A DNA stretch of 64,000 bases from Scenedesmus sp. PABB004 (Eukaryota): assembly GCA_014905635.1 (NCBI GenBank), contig JABVCE010000021.1, forward strand, positions 124,001-188,000. The letters run 5' to 3'. This document shows, in pieces, positions 20,916-58,109 of the stretch. Position 1 is the first letter of the stretch; every line of letters starts with the position of its first letter. A model generated the notes under the pieces. It worked only from the letters and a program-made list of their open reading frames with translations. It was not told where the DNA came from and ran no database searches. The position numbers and the translations under genes are program-made.

Positions 20916-21233
20916 GTGAGAGCGGCGGCGGGGCGCCGGCGGCGGTTGCGCTGCGCGGCGGCGCGCTCCAGCGGAACCGCGGCGGTTGTCGAGACGCGAC
21001 GTGAGCGCAGGCAGCCGTGAACGCCCGCCCTCACGCGACACGCTGCCCCGCAAGCGCAGCTCCAGCACACACCTCTCGTCGATCAGCTGCTCGGAGGTCC
21101 CCCGCCGCGCAGCCCGGCCTCGCAGACCGCAAGCACCGCCTGCTGCGTCAACAGCGCCGCGGTTCCTTCCACCCCAGCCCGCGCGGGCGATCGGGGCGCG
21201 CGCCGCGCGACCGGGGGCGAGGCGGGGCGCAAA

Positions 21234-22883
21234 ATGTCGCGCGGCGGCTCCGGCTACGACCGGCACATCACCATCTTCAGCCCGGAGGGCCGGCTCTTCC
21301 AAGTCGGTGAGCCGGGGGCGCGGCGGGGCGCCGGGCGCGCCGGCACGGCGCAGCGCGGCGCGCAGCAGCGGCGGCGGTCGCGCGGGCGCCGCCGCGGCCG
21401 CGCCGCCGCGCCGGCGCGCCTGATCCGGCTCCGGTCCGCTCGGGGCGGCCGCCAGCCGCGGACATGGGCGGCGCCGGGGGCGGCGGTGGCGGCGGCGCCG
21501 CGCGGCAGCGGGGGCAACCGCCCTCACCTCATGCGCGCGCGTGCAGAGTATGCCTTCAAGGCGGTGCGCCAGTCGGGCGTGACGTCCATCGGCGTGCGCG
21601 GCAACGACTGCGTGGTGTTCGTGACGCAGAAGAAGGCGCGCGCGAGAGAGAGAGCAGCGGCGGCGCCGGCGGTTGGCGCGGCGCGCTGCCGCCGCGCTGC
21701 CCCTGCGCTGCGGCGGCCCACGCGCCGTGCGGCCCCCCTGGCCGCGCCGCGTGGGGGCGCAGGTGCAGGACAAGCTGATCGACCCCACCAGCGTCAGCCG
21801 CTGCTACCGCGTCACCAAGCACATCGGCATGCTCTGCACCGGCCTGCCGGGTGCGGCGCGGCGCGGCAGCCGCGGCGCAGGGCCCCGGCGCGCCCCGCCT
21901 GGCCGCCGCCTGGCCTGACGGCCGCCGCCTGGCCTGACGACCGCCGCCTGGCCGCCCGCCGCAGCCGACGCGCGCAGCATCGTGCAGCAGGCGCGGCACC
22001 AGGCGGCGGAGTTTCGGTTCACCTACGGCTACGAGGTCCCCGTGGACTACCTGGCAAAGGTGCTCGCCGACAAGGCACAGGTCTACACGCAGGTGTGCGC
22101 GCGCGTGCGCCCCGCGCGGATGGGTTGGAGCCGGGCGGGGCGCCGCGGGCGGGCAGGGCGCGCGCCACGCGGGGGCCGTCGCCCACGCGCCGACGCGCCG
22201 CCGCCGCCGCTGCCGCCGCCCTGCTCGCCTGCGCGGCGGCGCGCGCAGCACGCGTACATGCGGCCGCTGGGCGTGATCTCGATGCTCATCAGTGTCGACG
22301 ACGAGCGCGGGCCCTGCCTCTTCAAGGCGCGGCGCTGCGCTGAGCCACCGGGGCGCGCCGCGCCGGGGGCACGCGCCGCACCCGCCCGCGCGGTCGCCCC
22401 GCGCCGCCCGCGCCTCCGCCTGCGCCCACGCCGCGCCACGCCGCGCTGCCCGCACGCTGTGTGGCGCAGGTTGACCCGGCTGGGTACTACGTGGGGTACA
22501 AGGCCACCGCGGTGGGGGCCAAGGAGACTGAGGCGGTCAACTTCCTGGAGAAGCGCGTCAAGGCGGCGCCGGGGGGCTTCTCGTACAGCGAGGCCGCGTG
22601 CACCGCGATCACCGCGCTGCAGGCACGTCGGGGGCGTGTGGCGCGGGGCTGGGACAGCGGCGCGCGGGGGTGCGGGGTGGGTGGGTGGTGGTGCGCGGCG
22701 GGGCCCCAGGCCGCCGCTGACGCGACGCGCGCGCCGCCGCGCGGCGCTGCGCAGAACGTGCTGAGCGAGGAGTTCAAGGCGTCCGAGATGGAGGTCGGCG
22801 TGGTCACGGCGGACGGTGGCTTCCGCGTGCTGCCGGTGGAGGAGGTGGACGCCTTCCTCACCACCATCAGCGAGCGCGACTGA
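21234..22883 (+). CDS. PSMA6: 20S proteasome subunit alpha type-6 (alpha1), 7 exons
   Basis: GYDRHITIFSPEGRLFQV|EYAFKAV, AAEFRFTYGYEVPVDYLAKVLADKAQVYTQ|HAYMRPLG, DPAGYYVGYKATAVGAKETEAVNFLEK, C-terminus ISERD*. Confidence 0.97.
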
Positions 22884-25828: not shown

Positions 25829-28800
25829 CGCCCCGGCCGCGGTGCGCGGCGCGGCCGCCGCGGGCGGCAGGAGGTCGTGGGCGTGCACGGCGGCGACGCG
25901 CACGTCCCGAGGACGAGCAGACGCGCACGGTGCAGGTGCGGCGCTGCGGCGGCGCTGCGCGGCGCGGCGGCTGCCGCCGCGCCTGCCCGACCGGGCGCCC
26001 GCGGCGCCGGTGCGCCGCAGATCCAGACGCTGAGCGGCGAGGGCGTGCTCACGCGCTGGGGCCGGTTCCTCAAGGCCGCGGGCGTGCGGCGGTGCGAGAC
26101 GCGCGCGCGCGGCCCGCCCGGCCCCCGCCCCCCGCCGCGCGCGCCGCCGAGGCTGCGCGCCGCGCGCGCTCCCGCGCGCCACGCGCGCAGGCGCCGCCCG
26201 CGCGGCGCGTTTGTGAGCAACGAGCTCGTCACGAATCGCTACAACCTGCTCAGCTTCCTGCCGGTCAACCTGTACCACCAGTTCAAGCGCGTCGCAAACC
26301 TCTACTTTGCCGCCCTCGTCTGCCTGCAGGCGCGGCGCTTGCGCGGCGGCCCCCGGCGGCGCGCAGAGACCCCGCGCCGCTGGACCAGCGCCGGCGCGGC
26401 GTGCGCGCCGAGCTGCCGCGCCGCGCCGCGCGCGCAGGCCATCCCCGGGCTGAGCCCCGTGCCGTGGTGGGGCACGCTCTTCCCGCTCGCGGTCGTGCTG
26501 CTGGTTAACGGCGTGAAGGAGGCGTTTGACGACTACTGGCGCCACAAGAGCGACGAGCAGGCGCGCACGCGCGCACGCGGGCACGCCGGCACGCGGGCAC
26601 GGGCGCTGCGGCGCCGCGGCGCGGCGCTGGCGCTCGGCCCGACCGCCGCGGCGCTGGCGCTCGGCCCGACCGCCGCGGCGCGGGCGCAGGTGAACCACCG
26701 CTGGGTGACGTCGCTGAAGGAGGACGGCGACCAGCGCATCTACTGGAAGGCGCTGCAGGCGCGGCGGCGACGGCGCGCGGCGCGGCGCGGCGTGCGGCGC
26801 ACAGCACCGCGCTCGCTCGCCCACGCGCGTGCGCGCCCCGCGCCCGCCGCCGCCGCCGCCGCCGCCACACCGCGCACGCGACTGCGCGCAGGTGGGCGAC
26901 CTCGTGCGCCTGTCCAACAACGAGGACATCCCGGCCGACTGCGTGCTGCTCGCGAGCAGCGACCCCGAGGGCCTCTGCTACGTCGAGACGGCAAACCTGG
27001 ACGGCGAGACAAACCTCAAGGTCAAGTTCTGCAACGCGCCGACGGCAGCGTATGACTGCGCGGGTGCGACGCCGCTCACGCCGCGCCGCGCGCGCGACGC
27101 CTGCTGCCGCGCCGCGTGCGCTCACGCCGCGCCGCGCTGCGTATTCGCGCGCTGTGCCTGTAGAGGCGTTCAGCCGCGCCGGGTACTTCACGCTGGAGTG
27201 CGAGGCGCCCAACCCCCGGCTCTACACCTTTGACGGCGCCGTGTGCTGCTGGGACTGCCCGCCCACGTTTGGCGGCCGCGGCGGCGGCCTCGGCGGAGGC
27301 CTCGGCGGCGCCGCCGCCGCGGCGCGCGGCGCGGCGGGGGCGGCGGCGGAGGTGGAGATGCACGCCGCCGGCGGTGGCGGCGGGTCGGGGTGGTACGCCG
27401 GCGCCGGCCGCGAGCAGGGCCCCGCCGGCGCCGGCGCGGCGGGCGGCGCGGCGCCGCGGCAGGGCGGCAGCCCCGGCGGCCGCGCGCGCGGCGGCAGCCC
27501 GGGGCGGCGGCGCCGCCCGCCCGGCGCCGGCGCCGGCGCCGGCGGCGTCGACGGCGACGGCCTGACCGCGGCGCTGGGTGAGTATGGGCAGCAGGTGGGG
27601 CTGGTCTACCGCGAGCCGCTCTCTGCGAGCAACCTGCTGCTGCGCGGCTGCACGCTGCGCAAGACGGAGTGGGTCATCGCGGCCGTGGTCTTCACGGGTG
27701 CGCCCGCGGCGCGCGCGCCCCGCCCCCCGCGGCGCCCGCCCGCGCGCCGCCCCACGCCCATGCCCGCGCCCACGCCTGCGCCCACGCCCACGCCCGCGCG
27801 CTCGCCCACGCGCCCGCCCGCGCGCCGCCGCCGCCGCCAGGCCCCGACACCAAGGTCGTGCGCAACATGCTCCCCGCGCCGCGCAAGGTCTCGCGGCTCG
27901 AGGCGGCCATGAACCGCGTCGTCGTCGGCGTGCTGGCCGTGCTGGGCAGCGCCGCGGTGCTGCTCGCGAGCGCCAACATGGCCTGGGAGGTGCGGCACCG
28001 CCCCGCGCGCGATTGGTACCTGGGCGAGCAGGTGCGGCGGCGACGGCGGCGGCGCGCGGCACGCGGGGCCGCGCCCGGGGCCGCGCGCGCGCCGCAGCCG
28101 CTCCCCTGCCGCCCATGCCGCCGCCGCCGCGCGACGCAGAGCGGCTGGCCCGAGCTCGCGCCGGGCGTGGCGAGCTGGCTCGTGCAGGTGCGCGCCGCGC
28201 CGCGCCCCGGCGCCGCCCGCCCTCTCTCGCCCCCGCTCTCCGCCGCCCGCGCCCGCCCCCACCTAAACCCTGACCCGCCTCACGCCCCCTAAACCCCAGG
28301 TGGTGCGCTTCATCATCCTCCTCGCCCAGGCGGTGCCGATCAGCCTCTACGTCTCGCTCGAGACGGTCAAGGTCGCGCAGTGCAAGGTGCCGCCGCCGCC
28401 GCCGCGGCGCTGTGCGCGCCGCGCGCCGCGCCCGCCCGTCTGCGCACTGCCACGCCCCACGCACTGCCCGCGTCCACCCGCCCGCGTCCCCGCAAATGCC
28501 CGCCGCGCCCGCAGCTGCTGATCGACCGCGACCGCGGCATGTACTACGCGCCGGAGGACGTCCCCTGCACCAGCCGCACCACGACGCTCAACGAGGAGCT
28601 CGGCCAGGCGCGCGCATGTGGGGGGTGTGGGGGCGTGCGTGGCACGGAGCGCGGCTGGCCGCCGCCCTGCTGCGCTCGGCGCCGCGATGCGCGCCAAACC
28701 ACCGCGCCGCCGCCGTCCCCGGCCCTGCCGCCGCCGCCGTCCGCAGGTTCAGTACGTGCTGAGCGACAAGACCGGCACGCTCACGCAGAACGTGATGGGC

Positions 28801-31800
28801 TTTGTCTGGGCCAGCGTGGCCGGCCGCCTCTACGGCCAGGCACAGCACGCGCAGCAGGCCGCCGCCGCGGCGGCGGGCAAGCTCGCGGCCGGCGCCGGCG
28901 CCGGCGTCGGCAAGCCCACCAGCGCCGGCGGGACGGTCGTGGGCGCCGCGGGGTCGCCGCCGCCGCCCAACACGCCGCACACCATCGCGCTCGACGCCGA
29001 CATGCGCGCCGCCGCGGCAGAGGCGGCGGCCGCGCACGGCGGCGGCGGCGGCGGCGGGGGCGCGGCGGCCGCGGTGGGCGACTTTCTGCTCGCGCTGGCG
29101 CTCTGCAACACCGTGGTGCCGACCGCGACGGAGGAGGGCCAGCTGCTGTACCAGGCGCGCGACTGCCGCAGCGGGCAGGGGCGGGGCAAGGGGGAGCCTC
29201 GGGCGCGCGCAGCGCGGCGCGGCGCAGCGTGCTTTTGTTCGACTTGGGCCGCGCGCCCGCCGCGGCGCCGCCCCGCCCGCGCAGGCGGCGTCGCCGGACG
29301 AGGAGGCGCTCGTGGCGGGCGCGGCGTACCTGGGGACCAAGCTCGTCGCGCGGTGCGTGCGGGGCCAGCACGCACGCGGGACTGACAGGGCGCGGCGCTC
29401 CCCAGGGCGGCGGCGCCCCGCCGCCGCCGTGCCCCGCCGTGCCCCTCCCTCGCCGCCCGCCCACGCTGCCGCGCTCGCCCGCCTGTCGCCGCCCCCGCCC
29501 CTGCCCGTCAACCCCCCAGGTCTGGCGCGGGCGTGGAGGTGGAGGTCGGCGGGCGGCTGGAGCGGCACGCGCTGCTGGCGGTCCTCGAGTTTTCGAGCGA
29601 GCGCAAGCGCATGAGCGTCGTCACGCGCTGCCCCGCGGGGCGCCTCGCCCTCACCACCAAGGGCGCCGACAATGTGGTGCTCGCGCGCCTCGCGGGTGGG
29701 TTTCAAGGGGCCGGCGGCGGCGGTTTAGGGGCTCAGGTGTTTGGTGGCTCGGGGCGAGGGCGGCTGCCGGGCGGCGCGAGCGGGGGTTGGGAGCCGCGCC
29801 CGAGCGCGCGCTGCCCCGCCCGCGTGCGCGCCGCGCAGGCGCCGGCGCGCCGCCCGCGGAGCTCGCGGCGGCGCAGCCGCTGCTCGCGGCGACGTCGGCC
29901 CACCTCGCCGACATGTCTGGCGCTGGGTACCGCACGCTGCTGCTCGCGCGCCGGGAGCTGGCGGAGGCTGAGTTTGACGACTGGGCGGAGCGCTACAGGC
30001 GCGCGGCGGCGCCAGCGCCGTGTGACGGGTCAACCGGCTGCAGCGCGGCTGCGAGCGCCCCGCTCACCCCGCCCCACCCTGCGCCACCCAACCCCACCCC
30101 GCCCGCCGCCCCCGCCTGCCGGCCGCCAGGGCGGCGTGCGCGAGCCTGGAGGACCGCGCGGGCGCGGTGGAGGCGCTGTGCGACGAGCTGGAGCGCGGGC
30201 TCAGCCTGCTCGGCGCGACGGCGGTGGAGGACAAGCTGCAGGTGGGCCCGGCACGCGCGCGCCGCCGCCCGGCGCCTGCTCCTGCTCCCTGCGCACGCCC
30301 ACGCCCGCGCCCGCGCCCTTGCCTTGGCCGCCCCTCCCCCGCCGCCGGCGGCGGCAGGACGGCGTGCCTGAGTCGATCGCCGCGCTGCGGGCGGCGGGCA
30401 TCCGGGTGTGGGTGCTCACCGGGGACAAGGTGGAGACGGCCATCAGCATCGGGCACACCGCGCGGTGCGGCGGCGCGCGCGCGCGCGCTGCGCCCGCTGT
30501 GCTGCCACAGGGGGCAGTGCGTGCCCGGGCGCGCACCGGCGTCGGCGCCCACGCGCTGCGGGCTGCGCGCCGCAGGCTGCTGAGCGCGGGCATGGGCACA
30601 TTGAAGGTCACTGAGGCCGACCTGCGCGGCGGGCCGGACGCGCCGCCCGGCCCGCCGCCGCCGCCGCCGGGCGCGGAGCAGCAGGGCCCGGCCACCGCCG
30701 CCGACGGCCCTGTCGCGGCGGCGCTGCGCCGCCTGCGCGCGCGCGCGGCCGCGCTGCGCGCGGGCGAGCCGGGCGGCGGCGCCGGCGGTCCCGGGGCGCC
30801 GCGCGCCGGTGGCGGCGGCGGGCCGCGCCAAGTGGGTCTGGTCATCGACGGCACCGCGCTCGCGGCCGCGCTGGCCCCGCGCACGAGGACGCCTTGCTGG
30901 CGCTGTGCGCCGAGTGCTCCGCGGTCGTGTGCTGCCGCGTGTCACCGATGCAGAAGGCACAGGTGGGCGGACGCGGGGGGAGGCGGGAGGCGGCGGCGCG
31001 GCACGGCGCGGGGGGAGGCGAGGGCGCTGCGCGGCCCCGCGCCGCAGCCGCCCGCGGCCGCGCGCCCCGCGCGCCGGCGCGCGTCCCACGCGCCGCGCTG
31101 CCGCGCGCTGCCGCAGGTCGCGCACCTGCTGCGGCGCAAGGCGGGCGCGGTGACGCTCGCGATCGGGGACGGCGCCAACGACGTGTCCATGATCCAGGCC
31201 GCACACATCGGCGTCGGCATCAGCGGCCGCGAGGGCCGCGCCGCGGTGCAGGTGCGCGCGGCGTGCCGCCGCGCCCCGCCCCACGCCTGCGCGCCCCGCG
31301 GCCCACGCCCGACGCGCCTCTGCCGCTGCCGCCGCCGCTGCCGCCGGCGCCGGCGCCCAGGCGAGCGACTTTGCAATCGGGCAGTTTCGCTTCCTCGTGC
31401 GCCTGCTGCTGCTGCACGGGCGCAGCAGCTATCTGCGGTGCCGCGAGGTCGTGCTGTACGCCTTCTACAAGAACGTGGCCTACGTCAGCTGCTACGTCTG
31501 CTTCGCCGCATACTCGGGTGCGGGCGGCGGCGGGCACACCACCGCGCCGCCGCGCCGCCTCGCCGCCGCTGCGTCTGCGGTCTGCGAGCTGCGCCCCTCC
31601 CGCACGCCCTTCCCCCGACCCCTGCCTGCCCCCTCTGCGCCCTCTGCGCCCTCCGCTGCCCCCTTTGCGCCCTCTGCCCCCCTAAACCCTGCCCCCCCCC
31701 CCCAGGGTTTAGCGCGCAGACCATCTTCTACCCGCTGTTCATCGCGACCTTCAACTCCCTCTGGGCCGCCTTCCCCAGCCTCGGCTTCGGCCTCTTGGAG

Positions 31801-33653
31801 CAGGACGTCCCGCCCCGGCTCGCGCTGGCGCACCCGGAGCTCTACGCCGAGAGCGCCGCGCAGACCGACAGGCGAGACGCGAAGCTCGTCGCGCGCCGCG
31901 CGGCGCGCGCGCGGCACCGCGCGCGGCACGCCCCGACGCCGCCGCGGCCGCCGGGCGCGCCGCCGCGCGCAGGGACTTTTACGTCGCGTGGGTGGGCTGG
32001 GTGGTGCTGGGGCTGTGGCACGGCGGCTGCTGCTTCTTCGTGCCGCTCGCCGCGCTCGCGAGCGGCGCCGCGGTCGGCCCGGGCGGGCAGCACGCGAGCG
32101 TTGCGGGGCTCGGCACGGCGGTGATGACGGCCATCGTCATCACGGTCACGCTGAGGGTGGGCGAGCGGCACACGCGCGCCGCGCGCAGCGCCGGCCCGCG
32201 CCGCCGCCCGCCTCGAAAGGCGGGCAAGGGTCGGGCGGCACCCCGGCGCCGCACCGCGCCGCCGCGCCCCACGCGCGCCGCGCTGCGCGGCCGCGCTGTC
32301 GCGCCAGGTGGCCATCCGCACGAGCCACTGGACGGCGGTGAACCACGGCCTCATCTGGGGCACGCTCGGCGCGTGGCTGCCCTTCCTGGCCCTGCTCGGC
32401 GGCCTCTGCGGCGCGGCGCCCGGCCTCGCGCCGCTGTGCGGGCTCGGCCCCAGCCTGCTCGGCACCGCGCCGTTCTGGCTCGGCGCCGTGCTCGGCGCGC
32501 CCGCGGCGGCGCTGCTGATGGACTACACATACATGGCCTTCCAGCGCCACCTCGCGCCGCGCGCCAGCCAGCTCCTGCAGGCGCGGCCGCGCGGCCGCAG
32601 GCCGGCTGCGCGGCGCGGCGCGGCGGGGCGTGGCCGCTCACGCGCGCCGCGCGCCGGGCCGCCCGCAGGAGCAGGAGCAGCTGCGCCGGCGCGCGGCGGC
32701 CAAGCTCGCGCAGGGCGGCGCGGCGGCGGCCGCGGCGGGGGGCGCGCTGCAGCGGCCGTCCGCGGTGCAGCTGCCGGCGCACGCGCCCGACGTCGAGGCG
32801 CCGCTCCGGCGGCAGCAGCAGCTGCAGGCCGCCGCGGCGCCCGCCGCGGGCGCCGCCGCGCGCGCGGGCGAGCCGCCGGCGCCGCCCCGGCCGGCCCGCC
32901 CCGGCGGCGGCGTCGTTGCGCTGGCGCACGTGCCGGCGACCGAGCCCGACGCTGCCGGCGTCAGCGCGAGCGGCGGCAGCAACGCCAGCCTGCTGGGCGG
33001 CGGCGCCGGCCTCGGGGAGACCTACGGCCTCTGGGGTGCGCGCCCTGCCCCAAGCCGCCGCGCCCTGCCGCGCGCCGCCCCGCCGCACGCCGCGCCGCCG
33101 CGCGGCGCTGACCGCCGCCGCGCGCGCCGGCTCGCTGCGTTGCGTCGCCGCGCCCGCGCCGCGCGCAGGCGGCCGCGGTGCCGCTGGGTTTGAGGTCGGG
33201 TCGGACTACAACCTGGGCGGCCCGCACACGCTCGGCGACATGGCGGCAGTCGAGTGGGCGCCCAACACCATCCTCGCCAGCCCCGCCACGCTCGCGGCGA
33301 GCCACACCAAGCGCCAGCTGCGGGCGCCGCTGGCCCGCCTGCGCGGCGGCGGCTTCGGGCGGCCGCTCGGCGCCGGCGCCGCGCCGGGCGCCGGCGCCGC
33401 GCCGGGCGCGACCGCTGGCCTCGGCAGGGAGGCGAGCACCGACAGCGACGGCTTCGGCCCGGCCGTGGCAGCGGCGCTGGGCCGCGGCCGTGGCGGCGGC
33501 GGCGGCGGCGGCGGCGCGACGCAGGCGCTGCCGCAGCTGCCCACCAGCACCAGCCCCCAGCCGCCCGGGGGGCGCTCGCGGCTGGGCCAGCCGCCGCGCC
33601 AGGCGCCGCCCGCGGCGCCGCAGTTCACCCTCGGCGGCGACGACACGCTGTAG
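25049..33653 (+). CDS. P4-type ATPase (phospholipid flippase, ALA/DRS2 family), about 20 exons, one apparent frameshift near 30876
   Basis: [134 protein letters not shown]. Start codon is inferred. Confidence 0.95.
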
Positions 33654-34635
33654 GCGTGGGGGATGCTGCTGGCGGCGAGCGCAGCGCGGACCCGCGCGCT
33701 GGCTTGCCGCGCGTGTAGCACGTGCCGCAGCGCACACAGCGCGCGGCGCGTCGGCGGGGCCGGGAGGGGGGGGCCCTGTGCTGGCGGCGCTTTGTGATCA
33801 AGCGGCCCCGGGGGCGCGTGTGACAGCGACCTGTGGCGCGCGCCGTCGCTGCACGGCCCCGCCGCGCCAGCGCCGGCGCGGCCAGCTGGCGGCGCGCGGA
33901 GTCGGGTGCGGTCAGCGAGCGAGCGGGGCGGCAGATGCGCGCGTGACCTCCCCGACCGTATGTGTGCTACGAATAGGGGGCATCGGGCTGGCGGGGGCGC
34001 GGTGCGGAGGCCAGGACTCGCCGCCGCCGGCCAGGAGATGCCTGCGCCGCCACCGCAGGCAAGTCGCCCCAAGACTCAACCTGCCGCTCCGGCGTGCCGG
34101 CCCACGCACGCGGCGCTGCACGTCGTCGTCGACGCGTCGCTGGCGGGAGCCTGACGAGGCCGGATCTTGCTGCGGCGCTTCGCTGACCTCAGCAACAACG
34201 CGGCCTGCCGCCCCGTATGCCGCCTCAACTCGCCCGCCCCTCGCTCCCGCACGCCAATACTGCTATACCTGATCACATCAAAGCTCTCCCGACTATCTCA
34301 AGCCCCCGATCGACACGCACACGAGACGCACCCGAGCGCGCAGGCCAAGCCCCGCGACAACTAGGTACGTTCGCGGTGCCGAAGGCTACCCATCAGCTCA
34401 CTTGCGATGCCTGAGCGTGTCGCGCGCGGCGTCGCCGGCTCCCGCGACGGGTCCACCGCAGGCCATCGCGGTGACCCAGCCCCCCGGCGCGCTGGGGCCG
34501 CCTTCAGCGCCCGCACTCACCGCCGTCGCTCTGCCGCACCGCGTCCTTGCCACCTGATCGCAGACGCGAGCTGCACGCCCACAGACAGCGAGCCCGCTAC
34601 CAAGCCACTCCGCACGAGTGGCTGCCGTCACGCCC

Positions 34636-37600
34636 ATGAGGCGCCTGCTGGCCGCCCTGCTGATGGTGGTGGCGTTTGCTGCGCTCGTCGCAGCAGGTGG
34701 GCGAGCCGGGGGCGAGCCGCCGCCGCGCCACGCGTGCTCGGCGTGACGCGCCTCCGTGCACCGGCCCGCAACCGCAGACGAGGATGAGCTGAGGAAGGTC
34801 CTGGCCGAGCACGAGCACGGCCTGGTGGGCGAGAACCCGGGCGTGGGCACCGCCCACGTCCGCAAGCTGCTCGGTGAGCGCCGTGAGCGCGTGACGCCCG
34901 CCGAAGCCCGCTGCGCGCGCGCCTGGCTGTGTTGCTGACGCTGCCTCGCCCGCTGTGTGGCCTCCTGACAGGTGGCGGCGCGCCCGACAACTGGCAGAAC
35001 TGGGGCGGCCCTGTCGACAAGAAGGTCTGGCAGTGGCAGCAGCCCGCCATCCCCCGCCCCGAGCGCCGCGAGAGCGACACCCGCCGCCTGCTGAGTGAGT
35101 GCCGCTGGCTGCGGGCACAGTGCTGGCGGCTGCCTGAGCGCGCACGAGGCGCGCGGTCTGACGCGCCCGCTGCCGCCGCCGTGCTGCCGCCTCCACGCTT
35201 GCAGGCGCCGATGCAAGCGGACCCGCGTCGCACCAGTTTTCCACCGCCGTGCCTGCTGAGGTGGGCATGAAGCCACGTGAGCCGCACCTGGACGACATGG
35301 AGCGCCTGTTTGCCGAGCACTTTGCGCCGGCTGAGGTGGCCGAGGACAAGCCGCGCGGTCGCAACCTGCTGGGTGAGTGGCCGGCTTGACTGCACTGCTA
35401 CCGTGGCTGCGGGCTGCCCAGGTGCGCGCGCGCCTGGCTGCGTATCTGACGCCGCCTCGCCCGCTGCGTGGCCACCTGACAGGCGGCGGCGCGCCGGACA
35501 ACTGGCAGAACTGGGGCGGCCCTGTTGACAAGAAGGTCTGGCAGTGGCAGCAGCCCGCCATCCCCCGCCCCGAGCGCCGCGAGAGCGACACCCGCCGCCT
35601 GCTGAGTGAGTGCCGCTGGCCGCTGGCACAGTGCTGGCGGCTGCCTGGGTGCGCGCGCGAGGCACGCGGTCTGACGCGCCCGCTGCCGCCGCCGTGCTGC
35701 CGCCTCCACGCTTGCAGGCGCCGATGCAAGCGGCCCCGCGTCGCACCAGTTTTCCACCGCCGTGCCTGCTGAGGTGGGCATGAAGCCGCGTGAGCCGCAC
35801 CTGGACGACATGGAGCGCCTGTTTGCCGAGCACTTTGCGCCGGCTGAGGTGGCCGAGGACATGCCGCGCGGCCGCAACCTGCTTGGCTCCGGTGGCGGCC
35901 ACGGCGGCGGCGGTGCCTCTGGCGGCAACGGCGGCAACGGTGGCCGGACCGGCCCTGCGTGGGTGCGGAGGCTGCTTGGTGCGTGCCGCTGGCTGCGCCC
36001 GCCGCCCGCCGAAGCCCGCTGCGCGCGCGCCTGGCTGTGTTGCTGACGCTGCCTCGCCCGCTGCGTGGCCACCTGACAGGTGGCGGCGCGCCCGACAACT
36101 GGCAGAACTGGGGCGGCCCTGTCGACAAGAAGGTCTGGCAGTGGCAGCAGCCCGCCATCCCCCGCCCCGAGCGCCGCGAGAGCGACACCCGCCGCCTGCT
36201 GAGTGAGTGCCGCTGGCCGCTGGCACAGTGCTGGCGGCTGCCTGGGTGCGCGCGCGAGGCACGCGGTCTGACGCGCCCGCTGCCGCCGCCGTGCTGCCGC
36301 CTCCACGCTTGCAGGCGCCGATGCAAGCGGCCCCGCGTCGCACCAGTTTTCCACCGCCGTGCCTGCTGAGGTGGGCATGAAGCCGCGTGAGCCGCACCTG
36401 GACGACATGGAGCGCCTGTTTGCCGAGCACTTTGCGCCGGCTGAGGTGGCCGAGGACAAGCCGCGCGGTCGCAACCTGCTGGGTGAGTGGCCGGCTTGAC
36501 TGCACTGCTACCGTGGCTGCGGGCTGCCCAGGTGCGCGCGCGCCTGGCTGCGTATCTGACGCCGCCTCGCCCGCTGCGTGGCCACCTGACAGGCGGCGGC
36601 GCGCCGGACAACTGGCAGAACTGGGGCGGCCCTGTTGACAAGAAGGTCTGGCAGTGGCAGCAGCCCGCCATCCCCCGCCCCGAGCGCCGCGAGAGCGACA
36701 CCCGCCGCCTGCTGAGTGAGTGCCGCTGGCCGCTGGCACAGTGCTGGCGGCTGCCTGGGTGCGCGCGCGAGGCACGCGGTCTGACGCGCTCGCTGCCGCC
36801 GCCGTGCTGCCGCCTCCACGCTTGCAGGCGCCGATGCAAGCGGCCCCGCGTCGCACCAGTTTTCCACCGCCGTGCCTGCTGAGGTGGGCATGAAGCCGCG
36901 TGAGCCGCACCTGGACGACATGGAGCGCCTGTTTGCCGAGCACTTTGCGCCGGCTGAGGTGGCCGAGGACATGCCGCGCGGCCGCAACCTGCTTGGCTCC
37001 GGTGGCGGCCACGGCGGCGGCGGTGCCTCTGGCGGCAACGGCGGCAACGGTGGCCGGACCGGCCCTGCGTGGGTGCGGAGGCTGCTTGGTGCGTGCCGCT
37101 GGCTGCGCCCGCCGCCCGCCGAAGCCCGCTGCGCGCGCGCCTGGCTGTGTTGCTGACGCTGCCTCGCCCGCTGTGTGGCCTCCTGACAGGTGGCGGCGCG
37201 CCCGACAACTGGCAGAACTGGGGCGGCCCTGTTGACAAGAAGGTCTGGCAGTGGCAGCAGCCCGCCATCCCCCGCCCCGAGCGCCGCGAGAGCGACACCC
37301 GCCGCCTGCTGAGTGAGTGCCGCTGGCCGCTGGCACAGTGCTGGCGGCTGCCTGGGTGCGCGCGCGAGGCACGCGGTCTGACGCGCTCGCCGCCGTGCTG
37401 CCGCCTCCACGCTTGCAGGCGCCGATGCAAGCGGCCCCGCGTCGCACCAGTTTTCCACCGCCGTGCCTGCTGAGGTGGGCATGAAGCCGCGTGAGCCGCA
37501 CCTGGACGACATGGAGCGCCTGTTTGCCGAGCACTTTGCGCCGGCTGAGGTGGCCGAGGACAAGCCGCGCGGTCGCAACCTGCTGGGTGAGTGGCCGGCT

Positions 37601-39844
37601 TGACTGCACTGCTACCGTGGCTGCGGGCTGCCCAGGTGCGCGCGCGCCTGGCTGCGTATCTGACGCCGCCTCGCCCGCTGCGTGGCCACCTGACAGGCGG
37701 CGGCGCGCCGGACAACTGGCAGAATTGGGGCGGCCCTGTTGACAAGAAGGTCTGGCAGTGGCAGCAGCCCGCCATCCCTCGCCCCGAGCGCCGCGAGAGC
37801 GACACCCGCCGCCTGCTGAGTGAGTGCCGCTGGCTGCGGGCACAGTGCTGGCGGCTGCCTGGGTGCGCGCGCGAGGCACGCGGTCTGACGCGCCCGCTGC
37901 CGCCGCCGTGCTGCCGCCTCCACGCTTGCAGGCGCCGATGCAAGCGGCCCCGCGTCGCACCAGTTTTCCACCGCCGTGCCTGCTGAGGTGGGCATGAAGC
38001 CGCGTGAGCCGCACCTGGACGACATGGAGCGCCTGTTTGCCGAGCACTTTGCGCCGGCTGAGGTGGCCGAGGACATGCCGCGCGGCCGCAACCTGCTTGG
38101 CTCCGGTGGCGGCCACGGCGGCGGCGGTGCCTCTGGCGGCAACGGCGGCAACGGTGGCCGGACCGGCCCTGCGTGGGTGCGGAGGCTGCTTGGTGCGTGC
38201 CGCTGGCTGCGCCCGCCGCCCGCCGAAGCCCGCTGCGCGCGCGCCTGGCTGTGTTGCTGACGCTGCCTCGCCCGCTGTGTGGCCTCCTGACAGGTGGCGG
38301 CGCGCCCGACAACTGGCAGAACTGGGGCGGCCCTGTTGACAAGAAGGTCTGGCAGTGGCAGCAGCCCGCCATCCCCCGCCCCGAGCGCCGCGAGAGCGAC
38401 ACCCGCCGCCTGCTGAGTGAGTGCCGCTGGCCGCTGGCACAGTGCTGGCGGCTGCCTGGGTGCGCGCGCGAGGCACGCGGTCTGACGCGCTCGCCGCCGT
38501 GCTGCCGCCTCCACGCTTGCAGGCGCCGATGCAAGCGGCCCCGCGTCGCACCAGTTTTCCACCGCCGTGCCTGCTGAGGTGGGCATGAAGCCGCGTGAGC
38601 CGCACCTGGACGACATGGAGCGCCTGTTTGCCGAGCACTTTGCGCCGGCTGAGGTGGCCGAGGACAAGCCGCGCGGTCGCAACCTGCTGGGTGAGTGGCC
38701 GGCTTGACTGCACTGCTACCGTGGCTGCGGGCTGCCCAGGTGCGCGCGCGCCTGGCTGCGTATCTGACGCCGCCTCGCCCGCTGCGTGGCCACCTGACAG
38801 GCGGCGGCGCGCCGGACAACTGGCAGAATTGGGGCGGCCCTGTTGACAAGAAGGTCTGGCAGTGGCAGCAGCCCGCCATCCCTCGCCCCGAGCGCCGCGA
38901 GAGCGACACCCGCCGCCTGCTGAGTGAGTGCCGCTGGCTGCGGGCACAGTGCTGGCGGCTGCCTGGGTGCGCGCGCGAGGCACGCGGTCTGACGCGCCCG
39001 CTGCCGCCGCCGTGCTGCCGCCTCCACGCTTGCAGGCGCCGATGCAAGCGGCCCCGCGTCGCACCAGTTTTCCACCGCCGTGCCTGCTGAGGTGGGCATG
39101 AAGCCGCGTGAGCCGCACCTGGACGACATGGAGCGCCTGTTTGCCGAGCACTTTGCGCCGGCTGAGGTGGCCGAGGACATGCCGCGCGGCCGCAACCTGC
39201 TTGGCTCCGGTGGCGGCCACGGCGGCGGCGGTGCCTCTGGCGGCAACGGCGGCAACGGTGGCCGGACCGGCCCTGCGTGGGTGCGGAGGCTGCTTGGTGC
39301 GTGCCGCTGGCTGCGCCCGCCGCCCGCCCAGCCCGGTGCGCGCGCGCCTGGCTGTGTTGCTGACGCTGCCTCGCCCGCTGCGTGGCCACCTGACAGGTGG
39401 CGGCGCGCCCGACAACTGGCAGAACTGGGGCGGCCCTGTCGACAAGAAGGTCTGGCAGTGGCAGCAGCCCGCCATCCCCCGCCCCGAGCGCCGCGAGAGC
39501 GACACCCGCCGCCTGCTGAGTGAGTGACCCGACCGACCCTAGGTGCGGTTGTCCGGCGCTGCGGCCTGCCGCGCAAAAAGCAGGCCGCAGCGTCGGCCGA
39601 GGCACCGCGCGCGCGCCCGCCGACGCCGGCCCCGCGCCCGCCCGGCCGCCTGGCCACAGGCACGGACGACAGCCGCCACGGCCCTGCCAGCTGGGGCTAC
39701 CGCATGCATGGCCAGGACAAAATCTATGAGCTTCTCAAGCAGCGCCCCAAGGGCGAGGCGCCCGTGGTGCCCGATGACGAGCGGTTCAACCGCCCGCCGC
39801 TGGAATACGTCGCCGGCGCCGGCGCCGAGCCGAGCGGGGAGTGA
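34636..39844 (+). CDS. Secreted repetitive prepro-polypeptide (~1050 aa, 20 exons) with R-x-L-L-delimited modules
   Basis: Exon 34636-34696 encodes signal peptide MRRLLAALLMVVAFAALVAA; exon 34778-34873; nine 123-nt exons starting 34972, 35483, 36080, 36593, 37190, 37697, 38294, 38801, 39397, alternating with 168-nt or 261-nt exons; last exon 39660-39844. All introns are GT-AG and phase 1, and the spliced frame has no stop. Confidence 0.85.
34905..39525. repeat. Higher-order tandem array (~510 + ~597 bp subunits, period ~1.1 kb, about 4 dimers plus one partial unit)
   Basis: Near-identical units recurring at 1104-1110 bp spacing, introns included. Confidence 0.97.
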
Positions 39845-40485
39845 CGCGGGGGAGTGGCGGCGCGCCCCGCCCGCGGCGGCCTCGCCGCGCGGCGGGCCCC
39901 GCCGGCGAGCACTTGACGCCCGCCCGTGGCGTTCTGGCGCGGGCGCGGCTGTAGCATTGACGGCGCGTCGCTGGCCAGCCGCATCGCCGACCGGCCCGCC
40001 GCCACGCGCACGTCGCGCGTGCTGCGTGTGCCGGGCTCCCTGGGCTGATGATGCGCACTGCCTGGCCAGCGGCTGCACAAGCCGCGCCGATTGACCGAGT
40101 GGGCCTCTGCCCCCGCGCCCCCTCCCCAAACCCGCGCCACGCATGTCCACGCGTCCCTGCCGGTGTCGTTGTTTGGTTTGGTTGATGCAGCGCATTGAAC
40201 GGCCATGGCAGCGTGCACATTTCATTCTGCAGCCCCGCCTGCTGCGACGCAGGCCCTCACGCCCCTCGCTCATGCCACGCGGTGCCTGCGCCGCAGCTCC
40301 GTTCCATCAGTTGTCTTGTACAGTAAAGCGCGCGCGCGCGGTGGCGCGGCCGCCGCCCGGCGCCGCCGGAGCGGCGGATTTTGACCGCCTCCCTCGTGGT
40401 CTGCATTAGATTTTGTTTCCCCGCGAGCGGCCCGGCTTGAAACAGTAAGCCCGCTGCACCGCCATGCCCGCGCCCGCGCGCGCGC

Positions 40486-40735
40486 TCACACGCCCTGGCG
40501 CAGCACCGCGCCCAGCGCCGCGGCCCTGCCGCCGCCGCCGCCGCCGCCGCCAGAGCCAGCGCCGGCCAGCTGCTGTTCGCCGCCCGCGGCCCCCCGTGCC
40601 GCCAGGAACGCAGCCACGTGCAGCGCGTCGCTGCGCGCCAGGATTGCATTGAAAGCGTACAGCTCGATGCGGCGCCGCTCGCGGTGAGCCGCGGCCGCCG
40701 GGTGCAGCGGCGCGCGGGGGCTGCCGCAGCCGCCC

Positions 40736-40766
<31 letters not shown>

Positions 40767-41166
40767 GCGGCGACGCCGCGCCGCAGGCCGGCGCCGGCGG
40801 CCAGGCCGGCCGCGGGCTCGGCAGCGCGCCGGCACGGCGCGGGCTGCGGCCGCCCCCGGCCGGCTGCTGCGGCGCGGTGGCCATGGGGCTGGCAGCCGCC
40901 GTGGCGGTGGGGCTGCCGGGGACGCGGCTCAGCGCGAGCCCCGCCCCAACCGCGCCAGCAGCGCCGGGGCTGGCCGCGCCGCCGGCTGCCGTCACGGGTG
41001 CGGCGGGGATGCGTGAAAGGGACCGCGTGGGGCCTTGGCGCACGCCTGGGCGTGCTGCCGTGGCGCAGCCGGCCGGCGGGGGCTGAGTCTTCGGCAGCGC
41101 CGCGCCGCTGTCGCCCGCCGGCGCCGCCTGCAGCGCCAGCCGGCCGCCTGCTCGAGTCGTGCGCAT
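40486..41166 (-). CDS. Hypothetical protein, low-complexity with one ordered-looking helix
   Basis: ATG at 41166; segment RERRRIELYAFNAILARSDALHVAAFLAAR; stop at 40486. Family not recognised. Confidence 0.4.
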
Positions 41167-41464
41167 GGCACGTCGCGTGAGCGGTCCTGGCCACCCGGGG
41201 ACGCTTGCTGACTGGGCTGCTCGGGCAGGGAACGCGGCGGCGCTGCGGCGGCGCCTGCCCTCGCTGCGCGGGCGCTCGGGCGGCAGCGCGGGCACGGGCT
41301 GCCGCATAGGCGTTGTCTGGTGTGGATACACGACGCGCCACGCCTGGCCGCACGCTGCGCGCGCCGAACCGCCGCCGTCCGCTGCCGCGCCGCTCTCACA
41401 CTCGCGGCGAACCACCTCTCCGCTCCATGTTGTTGAGTTTGCACCGGCCGAGACCGCCGATGGG

Positions 41465-42337
41465 TCAGTAACAGCACACCAGCGAGACCCACCACGCGTC
41501 GGCGACCCAGGCCTGGCCGTTCCAGCAGTTGGCGGTCGCGCCGCCGGTCATGTAGCTGCTCCCCGACCCGAACGTCCTGAAGCCCAGCAGCTTGCAGGCA
41601 GCTGACGTGTGGCGGCGGCGAGCGGCGCGGGCGCTCGTCGGTGAGCGCGCAGTGCAGCGTGCAGTCGACGGCGCACGCCGTCAACGCACCGTCGGCGGAA
41701 AGGTTGTACTCCTCCATGGAGCTGGGTCTCAGCAGCACCTTCTGCCTCTCCACCTGCGCGGCGAGCGCGGCGGCACCGGCGGCGTGGCGTGAGGACGACA
41801 GCCACGACCACCACCGGCGCACACGCCAGCAAGAGCACCGCCCAACCTTGGTGCAGTCCGGGCGAAATTCGTTGCAGATTACAGTTGTCACGTCGCGCTC
41901 CACCTGTTGCGTCGTGCACAGCCGGCCAGGGCGCATGGCGCTGTCGGCGAGGCGCCCGCACTGCTGCTGGCCGGGCGGCGGCGCAAACTGTGCCAGGCGT
42001 CGCCTGCGCGAGTGCAGAGGGTGCAGAGCAGCGAACGGCGGCGGCGAGTGAGTGCACAACGGCGGTGAGTGAGTGAGTGCGCTAAGGGCTGCGGGCCCGC
42101 CGCCGCCCTGCGTGAGTGAACGGCTGCGCTGGCGAGCTGGGCCTGCCCGCCATGCGACTGCTGCCTGCCCCGCGCGCGCGAGCGCCCCGAGCTGGGCGCG
42201 AGCCCGCCGTTCAGCTGGAAAAACGTCAAAGAGCTTTTGAAAGCAGCTCGTTGAGCAGCCACGCACGTGGTGCCGCTGGCCTCGACGCGGGATGCCGCGA
42301 GCGCAAAGCAGAGCACGAGCGGGATCGCGATCCTCAT
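41465..42337 (-). CDS. Small secreted Cys-rich protein, 142 aa, 4 exons
   Basis: Exons 42337-42267, 42003-41847, 41753-41690 and 41601-41465 join in frame over GT-AG introns: MRIAIPLVLCFALAASRVEASGTTRRLAQFAPPPGQQQCGRL...ACKLLGFRTFGSGSSYMTGGATANCWNGQAWVADAWWVSLVCCY*. Confidence 0.75.
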
Positions 42338-51894: not shown

Positions 51895-53772
51895 ATGAGC
51901 AGCAGCAGCACGGAGCCAGCCGCCGCCGCCGGCGCCGGCGCCGGCTCCGCTGCTGCCGGCGCGCGGCCGTTCAGAGTGCGCACCATTACAGCTTTTCTGG
52001 AGCTTCCCGCCGACGAACAGCGTTGGGGGGCGGAGTTGGCCGACGCCGGCGCCTTCCTGGCGCACGCGGCGGCCGCGCTCGCGGCCGAAGGTGCGGCGCT
52101 GGCGGCTGGCTGCCAGCCGGCGCGCGCTGCTGCCGACCAGGCTGGCCGCCAGGCACTCGCCAGCAGCGCGCGCTCGCCCGGTCGCCGCCGCGGCCGGCCG
52201 CAGGCTACGAGGTGCAGACCACGCGCATCGCGACGCAGCCCTTCCCGGACTTCCTCGCCGCGCCGGGCGCGCCGCCGGAGTGCCTCGTCGCCGCGGCGGC
52301 GCGCCTCGAGGCCGCGTGCCGAGCGCACGGCGTGGACCTGGTGTCGATCGGGCCGACCGACCGCCCGGAGCACCTCGAGGCGGCTGCCCTGCCGGCGCTG
52401 CTCGCGGCGACGCGCGGCGTGAGCGCGACCTTTGCGCTGCCGGCGCAGCCCGACCTGGCGCTCTGCGGCCGCGTCGCGGGCGCGGTCATGCAGCTGGCGC
52501 GCCTCACGGGTGCGCGCCGCGGCGCGGGGGGCTGGCGCCGCCGCGGGGCTCACGGCCGCGCGCCGCCGCGCGTGCCGCCGTGCGAGGCGCCGCCTCCACC
52601 TGCCCGCCCGCCCGCCCATCACCTGCGCAGGCGGAATGGGCAACTTTCGCTTCGCCGCCGCGTCGGCCATGCCGCCGGGCGTTCCGTTCTTCCCCGTGGC
52701 GCACGCGGGGCCGGGCCTGCACCGCGCCTTTGCGCTCGGCACCGAGTGCGACGCGCTGCTGCACCGCGCGTGCGCCGCGGCGACGGTGGCGGCCGGCGGC
52801 GGCGGGCCGGCGCCCAACGCGCTGCGCGCGGTGGAGCACGAGCTCGCGGCCGTGCTGACGGCGGCGCTGCAGCCGCTGGAGGCCGCGGCGCGGCGGATCG
52901 AGGCGGGCGCGGCGGGGGGCTTCCGCTACGCCGGCATCGATACCAGCGTCGCACCGGGGCTCGACACGCCGGCGCTGACCGACGCGTTTGCGCTGCTCCT
53001 CGGCCCGGGGCGGCACTTCGGCGGGCCCGGCAGCCTCGCGGTGGGGAAGCGCGCTCGCGCGCCGCGCGCGAGCCGCCGACGGCGCGCGAGCCGCCGACGG
53101 CGCGCGAGCCGCCGGCGGCGCGCGAGCCGCCCGCGGCACACGCCCCGCTGCGCGCCGCCGCGCAGGCGAGCGCTGCAGTCACGCGCGTGCTCAAGGCGCT
53201 GCCGCTGGCGATGACCGGCTACTGCGGCCTGATGCTGGCTGTCTGCGAGGACGCGGTGCGCGGGGCTTGGGGACCGCCGGTTGAGCCCGGCCAGCCGCGT
53301 CAACCGTGCGGCGGCAAGACCGCCCCGCGCGCCCGCGCCCGCGCCGGCGCGCCGCGCCGCGCCGCAGGGCCTCGCCGCGGCCGCGGCGGCCGGGCAGGTG
53401 ACGGTGAGCCAGCTGCTGCAGTACTCGGCCGTGTGCGGCTGCGGGCTCGACACCGTCCCGGTGCCCGGCCCCGCGCTCGGCGGCGGCGGCGCGGCGGCCG
53501 AGGCGGACGCGGCGACCACGGCGGCGATCGCGGGCGTCGTGTGCGACGTCAACGCGCTCGCGCACAGGCGCGTCGCGCGCGCGTCGCGGCGCGGGCGCGC
53601 CGCCGCGCACGCCGCGCACGCCGCCGCCGACTGCAGGCGCCGTGCACGCCGCAGGCTGGGCAAGCCACTCGCGTGCCGCTTGCTGCCGCTGCCGGGGAAG
53701 GCGCCGGGCGACCCCACCGGCTTCGACCACCCCTACATGGTCAACAGCGCCGTGATGGACCTCCAGAGATGA
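51895..53772 (+). CDS. DUF711 / UPF0210-like protein
   Basis: RVRTITAF, YEVQTTRIATQPF, NFRFAA...PFFPVA, GIDTSVAPG, GYCGLMLAVCED, YSAVCGCGLDTVPVPG, KPLACRLLPLPG. Confidence 0.85.
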
Positions 53773-53886: not shown

Positions 53887-56884
<2,998 letters not shown>

Positions 56885-57144: not shown

Positions 57145-58109
57145 CTACACCGCGTCGTCGTCCCCCCCGGCGCCGGCGCTCGCGCGCTGCGCCGCTGCGG
57201 GCTGCGCCGCCAGCTCCTGCAGCAGGCGTTCGTGGCTGACCCAGTTCGGCAGGCAGTCCTGATATTTCCAGGCCGCCTGCCACCTCAGCGGCAACACAAA
57301 GCAGTGCAGGCTGCGGGACGGCGGGCGCGGGCGTGAGGGCCGGGGTCTGGGCCGCGCGCAGACGCGCGCGGCGGCACGTCGGCACGTCGGCGGCGCAGGC
57401 TCACTGCAGGTGGTCCACGCTGCGGAATGGCGGGCGGTGGAACCCAAACTTCAGGCGCGGCCGCCGCTGCTGCTGCTGCTGCTCCTCCTGCGGCGGCGGC
57501 GGCGCCTGCTGCGCCCCGCCGGCCGGCGGGCCCGGCAGCAGCGGCTCCTGCGCGCCGGCCGCGCCGCGCTGCCGCTGCGCCGGCTGCGCCGCCGGCCGCG
57601 GCGCCCCGCCCGCGCGCTCCCGCAGCGCCAGCTGCTCCAGCAGCGCGGCCTCGCCCACGGCGCGCATGTGGCGCAGCAGCGGCGCGTGGGACGCGGCGAG
57701 GGCGTCAACGTTGGCCACGTGCGCGCGCGGGAGCACGAGCAGGTGCAGCGCTGCCGCGGGCCGGATGTCCGGCAGCACCACCACGCGCTCGTCCTGCAAC
57801 CACACACGCGGCGGCGGCGGCGACGTCGAGCTGCGGGCCCCAGGCGCTGGCTGGGGGTCGCGGCGGCGGCGCGCCGCCACCGACCTGGAAGACGACGCGC
57901 GAGGCGGGGCCGCCCGCGCCGCGCGCGATGGCGCAGAAGATGCAGCCCGCCTCTTCATGCCCTGGGGCGACGGGAGCGGCGGCAGGCACCCCCGCGGGTC
58001 GACGCACGGCCGCGCGCGCCAGCGTTTGCGCTGCTGCTGCGCGTGGCGTGCGCGCACCGCGGCCGCCGCCGCCCAAACAGCAGCAGCACCCCCTCCGGCT
58101 TGCTGGCAT
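57145..58109 (-). CDS. HIT-family nucleotide hydrolase (HINT3/HINT4/aprataxin-like)
   Basis: CIFCAIA, DIRPAAALHLLVLPRAH, GFHRPPFRSVDHLH|LHC (triad spliced across the intron near 57309-57404). First exon MPASRRGCCCCL is inferred. Confidence 0.88.

Follow-up and report, generated by a model that had tools for sequence, protein, structure and literature searches.

A 64,000-nucleotide stretch of the genome of the green alga Scenedesmus sp. PABB004 (contig JABVCE010000021.1, positions 124,001 to 188,000 of the forward strand, assembly GCA_014905635.1; hereafter the window) holds a spliced gene for a repeat protein with the motif R-x-L-L at 22 module ends. The gene occupies positions 34636-39844 of the plus strand, has 20 exons and encodes 1054 amino acids. 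We read its product, tentatively and with somewhat less than even confidence, as a secretory polyprotein in which a Golgi-resident, site-1 protease (S1P)-type subtilase would cut behind every R-x-L-L. The finding itself is real; the functional reading is put forward as a hypothesis built on the sequence.

A spliced gene for an orphan repeat protein

Splice donors and acceptors were collected by script on the plus strand, and each of the 19 donors found has a matching acceptor. The resulting exons measure 61 and 96 nucleotides, then 123 (nine exons), 168 (four) and 261 (four), with a last exon at 39660-39844. Every one of the introns runs from GT to CAG, is 81-140 nucleotides long and lies in phase 1, and 17 of the 19 carry CTGAC 33-43 nucleotides upstream of the acceptor. 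All internal exons have lengths divisible by three; the introns, with a single exception (18 of 19), do not. The acceptor of the last exon, cacag/GC, was picked from four frame-compatible AGs as the only one that reproduces the 1054-residue database protein. No TGTAA polyadenylation signal lies within 1.6 kb downstream of the gene.

The exons encode two unique N-terminal pieces, an array of modules and a unique tail, in the order u-u-ABABC-ABABC-ABABC-ABABC-A-u, where u is a unique piece. Module A (41 amino acids) occurs nine times and module B (56 amino acids) eight times, four copies with K and four with M at one position. Module C (31 amino acids) extends four of the eight B modules, which we call the B' copies. 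The original prediction had given the same architecture with a ratio of 9:8:4, and our recount arrives at the same numbers. On the DNA, the tandem array spans roughly 34.9-39.6 kb and comprises one 271-nucleotide family of nine copies, spaced alternately by about 510 and 597 nucleotides, together with several 300-nucleotide families of eight copies each; the copies are 96-100% identical. Tandem Repeats Finder did not detect the array because its period (about 1.1 kb) is above the 500-nucleotide limit of that program.

Every internal exon (34972-39519) is of phase 1-1 and a multiple of three nucleotides, and therefore the skipping of any exon or block would keep the frame and the number of modules could vary. 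In the B' copies the usual donor position (CTGCTGG/gtgagt) reads CTGCTTGGCTCC, and the exon, whose donor is gtgcgt, is longer by the 93 nucleotides of module C (35886-35978 and the three other C parts). Its downstream intron begins like the intron between A and B. Module C, which once more closes with RRLL, has the appearance of a recent product of exon extension or of recombination.

Every letter of the spliced translation agrees with the only database match, 'hypothetical protein HT031_005292 [Scenedesmus sp. PABB004]', of 1054 amino acids, from a contig of 733,712 bases. This identity with an NCBI protein from a chlorophycean green alga bears out the 20-exon splice model and the algal origin that had been proposed from the letters alone. 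The same prediction called the gene hidden, which does not hold, since the identical model is already in NCBI. In other words, the gene is annotated but unnamed and uncharacterised.

That the gene is real and spliced is supported by RNA from two environmental metatranscriptome runs of one study (X1 and X2), whose contigs were compared with positions 34400-35482; the share of sampled words of the stretch present was 0.09 and 0.06 in the two runs. A 261-letter contig from X1 matches 35231-35370 in a B exon, continues through 94 unmatched letters and then matches 34971-34997 at the start of an A exon. These numbers are those predicted for a B' exon with its two last bases, the 93-nucleotide C part and a spliced A exon. 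The last base of C is G, the same as the G of the acceptor. The middle part of the contig is assigned from its length rather than its letters. The contig cannot be collinear genomic DNA, because such DNA would give a 101- or 110-nucleotide intron. The 159-letter contig from X2 covers 35222-35373 and departs from the genome sequence at the predicted donor. Within the compared interval, RNA cover is nil, and so uninformative, on both N-terminal exons (1 and 2), on introns 1-3 and on the larger part of the first A exon.

The copies themselves carry a further signal. Among the nine A and eight B exon copies there are ten variable columns, of which nine are synonymous and one is the change from K to M (binomial p = 1.8e-5, with synonymous sites making up a fraction of 0.236). 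Among the four C parts there is no difference. Exon copies differ by no insertions or deletions, whereas the introns carry differences of 6, 2 and 1 nucleotides. Both the excess of synonymous changes and the lack of indels in the exons point to purifying selection on the peptides.

Searches for relatives returned nothing beyond the protein itself, and the protein is an orphan. Pfam gave no family for any of the five module translations (E<=1) or for the whole protein (E<=0.1). An index of 5.8 billion sequences held only the protein itself among longer proteins and those of similar length, and nothing among shorter ones, each run scoring the 8000 candidates that shared most words. With the B'C exon as query, phmmer recovered the protein and one unrelated repeat protein (E 9.7e-4) from 1.84 billion representatives, a library against which the tail and module A were not run alone. 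The ESM Atlas gave no usable match for the whole protein or the tail. The 13 matches in a PDB sequence search (E 0.0044-0.95), many of them to antibody single-chain variable fragments and engineered fusions, were short alignments that we take as low-complexity, Gly-rich similarity. Two scans of metagenome contigs by pattern yielded 1 and 598 matches, of which tblastn confirmed none. Elsewhere in the window, tblastn of the protein reached a best E of 0.36, and the pattern of R-x-L-L next to a splice donor does not occur. These Pfam, protein-database and phmmer results agree with the earlier statement that the family could not be recognised. Among the papers listed for the locus tag HT031, supplements not included, none appears to concern this gene, a 13-residue stretch of module A returned no paper, and titles and opening abstract lines on S1P in green algae mentioned no such precursor.

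Modules and their R-x-L-L ends

At the N-terminus, MRRLLAALLMVVAFAALVAA shows the n-h-c arrangement of signal peptides: MRR, 17 hydrophobic residues (mean Kyte-Doolittle value 2.88) and then VAA/DEDE. No later hydrophobic stretch follows (maximum mean 0.22). On this heuristic, a Kyte-Doolittle profile, the N-terminus looks like a signal peptide for secretory entry, as originally proposed. AlphaFold2 (AF2) run without an alignment gave a mean predicted local distance difference test (pLDDT) score of 33.6, with helices only at the N-terminus (helix residues 2-19); residues 33-1054 score below 50 and show no secondary structure, a single-sequence result used solely as 'no fold detected'. Disorder-promoting residues make up 62-74% of the modules. 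The chain after the signal peptide is thus predicted to be unfolded.

After the signal peptide come DEDELRKVL and a 23-residue piece ending in RKLL, and then the 21 modules, which fill 941 of the 1054 residues. Module A is basic (net charge +2, pI about 10) and has four Trp, module B is acidic (net -4 or -5), and module C is Gly-rich and basic (net +3); the tail of 61 residues is acidic. Cys, N-x-S/T, SP, [ST]P, PPP and KR are all missing from the protein. Lys accounts for 3.3% and Ser for 5.0% of the whole protein, in which K..K, G[KR][KR] and R.[KR]R are all absent. BLASTP finds no alignment among the four module types (exon 2, A, B and C), and on this result we dropped a visual guess of homology between exon 2 and the C-terminal half of B. 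Each A module contains W-Q-N-W (nine of nine, accounting for the nine W..W of the protein) and a second W-Q-W close by. The W-x-x-W presumably fits the consensus for C-mannosylation, which we treat as a lead only.

The protein holds 23 R.LL. One belongs to the MRRLL that opens the signal peptide; all others stand at a module end (13 RRLL, 8 RNLL and 1 RKLL), where the next residue is without exception G or S; RKVL occurs once. These figures reproduce the 22 sites and single RKVL first counted, to which only the MRRLL has to be added. Four of the 22 lie inside exons, at the joins of B' to C, and the other 18 at exon ends. Permuting residues within modules gives probabilities of an R.LL end of 1.3e-3, 1.6e-4, 2.9e-4 and 2.2e-4 for the four module types, and the pattern exceeds chance. 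No module has an internal R.LL besides the one at its end, and in A and C the two leucines of the motif are the only leucines.

The motif is written in different codons: CGC CGC CTG CTG in A, CGG AGG CTG CTT in C, CGC AAC CTG followed by CTG or CTT in B, and CGC AAG CTG CTC in exon 2. Codons differ and residues are kept, so the constraint lies on the peptide and not on the splice site. Modules A and C share the first 19 or so nucleotides of their downstream introns, and their motif ends may have one origin, kept under selection, rather than two.

Candidate processing and its alternatives

In the reading we put first, the signal peptide would take the protein into the endoplasmic reticulum. The chain, predicted to be unfolded, consists of three sequence-unrelated module types, each ending in R-x-L-L before Gly or Ser, a step of the scheme that can be read directly from the protein. 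An S1P/SKI-1-type Golgi subtilase, a chlorophyte counterpart of Chlamydomonas Cre14.g628800, would then cut after each R-x-L-L and release about nine A, eight B and four C peptides, two small N-terminal pieces and the 61-residue tail. The released peptides may then be trimmed at the C-terminus, as diatom silaffins are, and would act outside the cell. Some precursors pair acidic spacers with cationic peptides, and because the alternation of basic and acidic modules resembles these, we would guess that defence or cell-surface assembly is somewhat likelier than a role as pheromone.

The motif suits the proposed enzyme. RRLL has been called the 'optimal' site for S1P; it is cut in Lassa virus (RRLL/GT) and Crimean-Congo haemorrhagic fever virus (RRLL/SE; PMC8310232). 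The plant enzymes S1P/SBT6.1 and SBT3.5 cut RxxL and RxLx sites, among them RRIL/A in RALF23 and RRLM/GSG in PROSCOOP12 (PMC13082318), and RKLL and RRLL are processing motifs of pro-pectin methylesterases (pro-PMEs; bioRxiv 2022.07.28.501549). The first assignment of R-x-L-L to the S1P motif therefore agrees with published sites (PMC8310232, PMC13082318). SKI-1-like subtilases form a group found throughout Archaeplastida (PMC6713707), and the type I membrane subtilase Cre14.g628800 of Chlamydomonas is the one most like human SKI-1/S1P (PMC6313938). With known S1P substrates (RALF23, CLEL6/GLV1, pro-PMEs, bZIP17/28 and the glycoproteins of arenaviruses and nairoviruses) the protein shares RRLL or RKLL, a small P1' residue (G or S) and the secretory route, in that it has a predicted secretory entry and R-x-hydrophobic-L at 22 module ends. 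It differs in the number of sites: in the sources cited, theirs are one or two, cut once for activation.

By analogy, the nearest architectural precedent is the silaffin precursor of diatoms. In Sil1p a signal peptide and an acidic N-terminal stretch are followed by units R1-R7, which end in RRIL or RRNL; an endopeptidase frees these units, whose RRIL/RRNL ends are absent from the mature peptides, and silacidins, cingulins and frustulins likewise have repeats that close with RXL (PMC4557024, PMC5647440). The algal protein likewise has a predicted signal peptide, an acidic N-terminal part and tandem RXL-ended units of the form R-R/x-(I/N/L)-L. Unlike Sil1p, it comes from a green alga, has no sequence similarity to it, alternates three module types and lacks the Lys/Ser-rich make-up. 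The Sphaeropleales include Pediastrum, whose wall is described as silica-reinforced (PMC10598416), a lead only.

Fungal Kex2-processed repeat proteins (KEPs) are defined by at least three repeated motifs filling at least 15% of a secreted protein, and of 1193 KEPs just 77 have two motif types and 2 have three (PMC6339444). Like these and the alpha-factor precursor, the algal protein is of secretory type, has no recognised domain and bears at least three tandem cores with protease-site separators; its 21 modules lie within the KEP definition of repeats. The KEP separator is dibasic (KR, RR or KK), whereas here nine of the 22 junctions are non-dibasic and KR is absent; the host belongs to another kingdom and there is no homology. 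Chlamydomonas makes secreted bioactive peptides from signal-peptide precursors by way of subtilisin-like enzymes (PMC6313938, PMC6919629, PMC9351486), and its amidated ciliary peptides are in this sense the same kind of green-algal product. Their precursors differ in having sites of basic residues and Gly-directed amidation, for which the G[KR][KR] signal is absent here, and another repeat architecture. The marks of green-algal hydroxyproline-rich wall glycoproteins (HRGPs) and pherophorins (SP, [ST]P, PPP or a Pfam family) are likewise missing. By its sequence features, then, the protein is not a silaffin, a KEP or an HRGP/pherophorin.

Several points weigh against processing by an S1P-type enzyme. 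Cleavage at R-x-L-L is purely inferred, and the S1P-type subtilase of PABB004 is a putative one, suggested by the reports on Archaeplastida and Chlamydomonas. Among the S1P substrates described in the sources cited none is a multi-copy protein with 22 sites. Protein, phmmer and metagenome searches found no ortholog or paralog, which leaves no second species in which to compare the motif. The RNA consists of two short contigs from one study, with the signal-peptide exon and the tail outside their cover. G+C content at third codon positions (GC3) is 0.86 in the gene and 0.96 in the conserved neighbouring TIP49 exon. Finally, the recurrence of the site may come in part from a duplicated exon-end cassette and not from independent selection, which is conceivable because most sites (18 of 22) coincide with an exon end and A and C share the start of their introns.

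This last point leads to an alternative that we consider possible, if rather unlikely: the product is an uncleaved, repetitive, disordered secreted or cell-wall protein, in which R-x-L-L stems from duplicated exon ends or serves as a binding or assembly motif. Sites at exon ends combined with introns all of phase 1 are the signature of exon duplication, the alike intron starts of A and C fit it, and the near-identical copies mark a young array. Many matrix proteins are, like this chain, unstructured. Duplication of one exon end is harder to reconcile with four unrelated module types that all end in R.LL plus a small residue, or with motif codons that vary around constant residues. Nor does the protein carry the green-algal wall marks, having no SP, PPP or Cys and no family such as pherophorin, and the motif it does carry is the optimal S1P site. 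Were the protein uncleaved, it would be an ordinary lineage-specific repeat protein.

A precursor that is processed by another enzyme, or at another bond, appears improbable. Aspartic proteases cut R-x-L/ at apicomplexan PEXEL/TEXEL sites. A kexin-like enzyme cutting after RR or an endopeptidase of the diatom RXL type would be further candidates; in the diatom accounts cited the RXL endopeptidase is not yet named (PMC4557024, PMC5647440), and Chlamydomonas has several subtilisin-like convertases (PMC6313938). RR occurs 23 times, in the 13 module-end RRLL, in nine ERRE inside the A modules and in MRRLL. Eight RNLL junctions and one RKLL junction have no dibasic pair, so that dibasic cutting would leave B joined to A or to C and, given the ERRE, would also cut inside A. 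KR and R.[KR]R are absent, and the only feature common to all 22 junctions is R-x-L-L, the site that the S1P-type reading uses.

We also doubt that this is simply a young, lineage-restricted gene with hardly any function or none, a repeat amplified not long ago and transcribed and spliced by chance. The protein is an orphan among 1.84 billion representatives and in the 5.8-billion-sequence index, its copies are near-identical, and its GC3 falls below that of the housekeeping neighbour. A frame intact over 20 exons behind a canonical signal peptide would not be expected of such a gene; the nine-to-one excess of synonymous changes and the indel-free exons fit purifying selection, and spliced RNA is present in an environmental metatranscriptome.

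Coding by the minus strand, where stop-free open reading frames (ORFs) of 1778 amino acids (34398-39734) and 1636 amino acids (34628-39538) cross the whole array and draw Pfam names such as MvaT_DBD (E 7.5e-16) and others, was rejected as extremely improbable: the matches are partial (about 15-50 residues), mostly to bacterial or unrelated domains and summed over repeat copies, the Arg/Ala/Gly/Pro runs are typical of non-coding frames in DNA of 75-80% GC, the unit spacings of 511 and 596 nucleotides shift the frame relative to the repeat, and both the variable sites and the database protein belong to the spliced plus-strand frame. In GC-rich DNA, repeated units whose length is a multiple of three give rise to very long spurious ORFs.

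Genomic setting and wider meaning

Pfam searches of stop-to-stop ORFs in the window indicate that the neighbours are housekeeping genes (Table 1). No protease or peptide-modifying gene was seen among them by the same search, which leaves the original comparison with peptides that ribosomes make and that are modified after translation (RiPPs) without support from the neighbourhood. A weak match to a GDSL lipase near 49.5 kb falls below the Pfam cut-off. The window as a whole is nuclear DNA with a very high G+C content for a eukaryote. In 2-kb windows, this content dips to 0.73-0.75 over the gene and about 2 kb downstream (34000-42000), against 0.77-0.83 elsewhere. A long (TG/CA)n dinucleotide microsatellite at about 1900-2160 reads as an ORF translating CVCVCV and so on. 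Rfam and tRNA scans of the window gave no matches; neither did a bacterial promoter and terminator scan upstream of the gene, which is not meaningful for a eukaryote.

Table 1. Exons of the repeat gene and neighbouring genes, with positions in the window
Feature	Position	Strand	Basis
Exon 1: start codon and signal-peptide-like MRRLLAALLMVVAFAALVAA; donor CAG/gtgggc, phase 1	34636..34696	+	splice model; AF2 helix residues 2-19
Exon 2: unique acidic DEDELRKVL and AEHEHGLVGENPGVGTAHVRKLL	34778..34873	+	splice model
A exon copy 1, 41 amino acids, ends RRLL	34972..35094	+	splice model; X1 RNA contig matches exon start
B exon copy 1, 56 amino acids, K form, ends RNLL	35205..35372	+	splice model; X1 and X2 RNA contigs
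A exon copy 2	35483..35605	+	splice model
B'+C exon copy 1: B with M, internal RNLL, 31-residue Gly-rich C ending RRLL, donor gtgcgt	35718..35978	+	splice model
A exon copy 3	36080..36202	+	splice model
B exon copy 2, K form	36315..36482	+	splice model
A exon copy 4	36593..36715	+	splice model
B'+C exon copy 2	36828..37088	+	splice model
A exon copy 5	37190..37312	+	splice model
B exon copy 3, K form	37419..37586	+	splice model
A exon copy 6	37697..37819	+	splice model
B'+C exon copy 3	37932..38192	+	splice model
A exon copy 7	38294..38416	+	splice model
B exon copy 4, K form	38523..38690	+	splice model
A exon copy 8	38801..38923	+	splice model
B'+C exon copy 4	39036..39296	+	splice model
A exon copy 9	39397..39519	+	splice model
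Last exon: unique 61-residue acidic tail (STDDSRHG...AEPSGE), stop 39842-39844	39660..39844	+	match to database protein
mTERF	~14600-15000	+	Pfam
Proteasome alpha subunit	~21200-22100	+	Pfam
P4-type phospholipid flippase exons (PhoLip_ATPase_N, Cation_ATPase, Hydrolase, PhoLip_ATPase_C), directly upstream of the repeat gene	~26200-32600	+	Pfam
DUF711	~52200-53000	+	Pfam
RuvBL/TIP49	~54300-56800	+	Pfam
DcpS_C/HIT	~57600-57800	-	Pfam
SMP-30/gluconolactonase	~59500-59800	+	Pfam

Repeat precursors with protease-site separators are a known kind of protein. What is new here is the green-algal host, the alternation of three module types and the 22 sites of S1P-optimal type. It is conceivable, although we think it on balance unlikely, that this is the first multi-copy peptide precursor of an S1P-type convertase, that is, one acting at non-basic R-x-L-L sites, and a green-algal counterpart of the KEPs and silaffin precursors. 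One transcript would then give Trp-rich basic, acidic and Gly-rich basic peptides in stoichiometric amounts, and, because the internal exons are all of phase 1-1, the dose of peptides could be adjusted by skipping exons with the frame intact.

In the sources cited here, S1P-type proteases appear as single-cut regulators, acting on SREBP, ATF6/bZIP28, RALF and viral glycoproteins. If the polyprotein reading is true, such enzymes would be seen to work as prohormone-type convertases as well, yielding peptides in bulk, and the unexplained RXL processing of diatoms would be linked to a candidate class of enzyme. The design could also be of use in algal biotechnology strains, as a self-cleaving polyprotein for several peptides. 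A signal peptide followed by repeats that end in R-x-L-L and then G or S would offer a rule for further searches. Very few secreted peptides are known from green algae; this gene would add three more, and R-x-L-L would represent a general, unexplored route of peptide maturation in chlorophyte secretory pathways.

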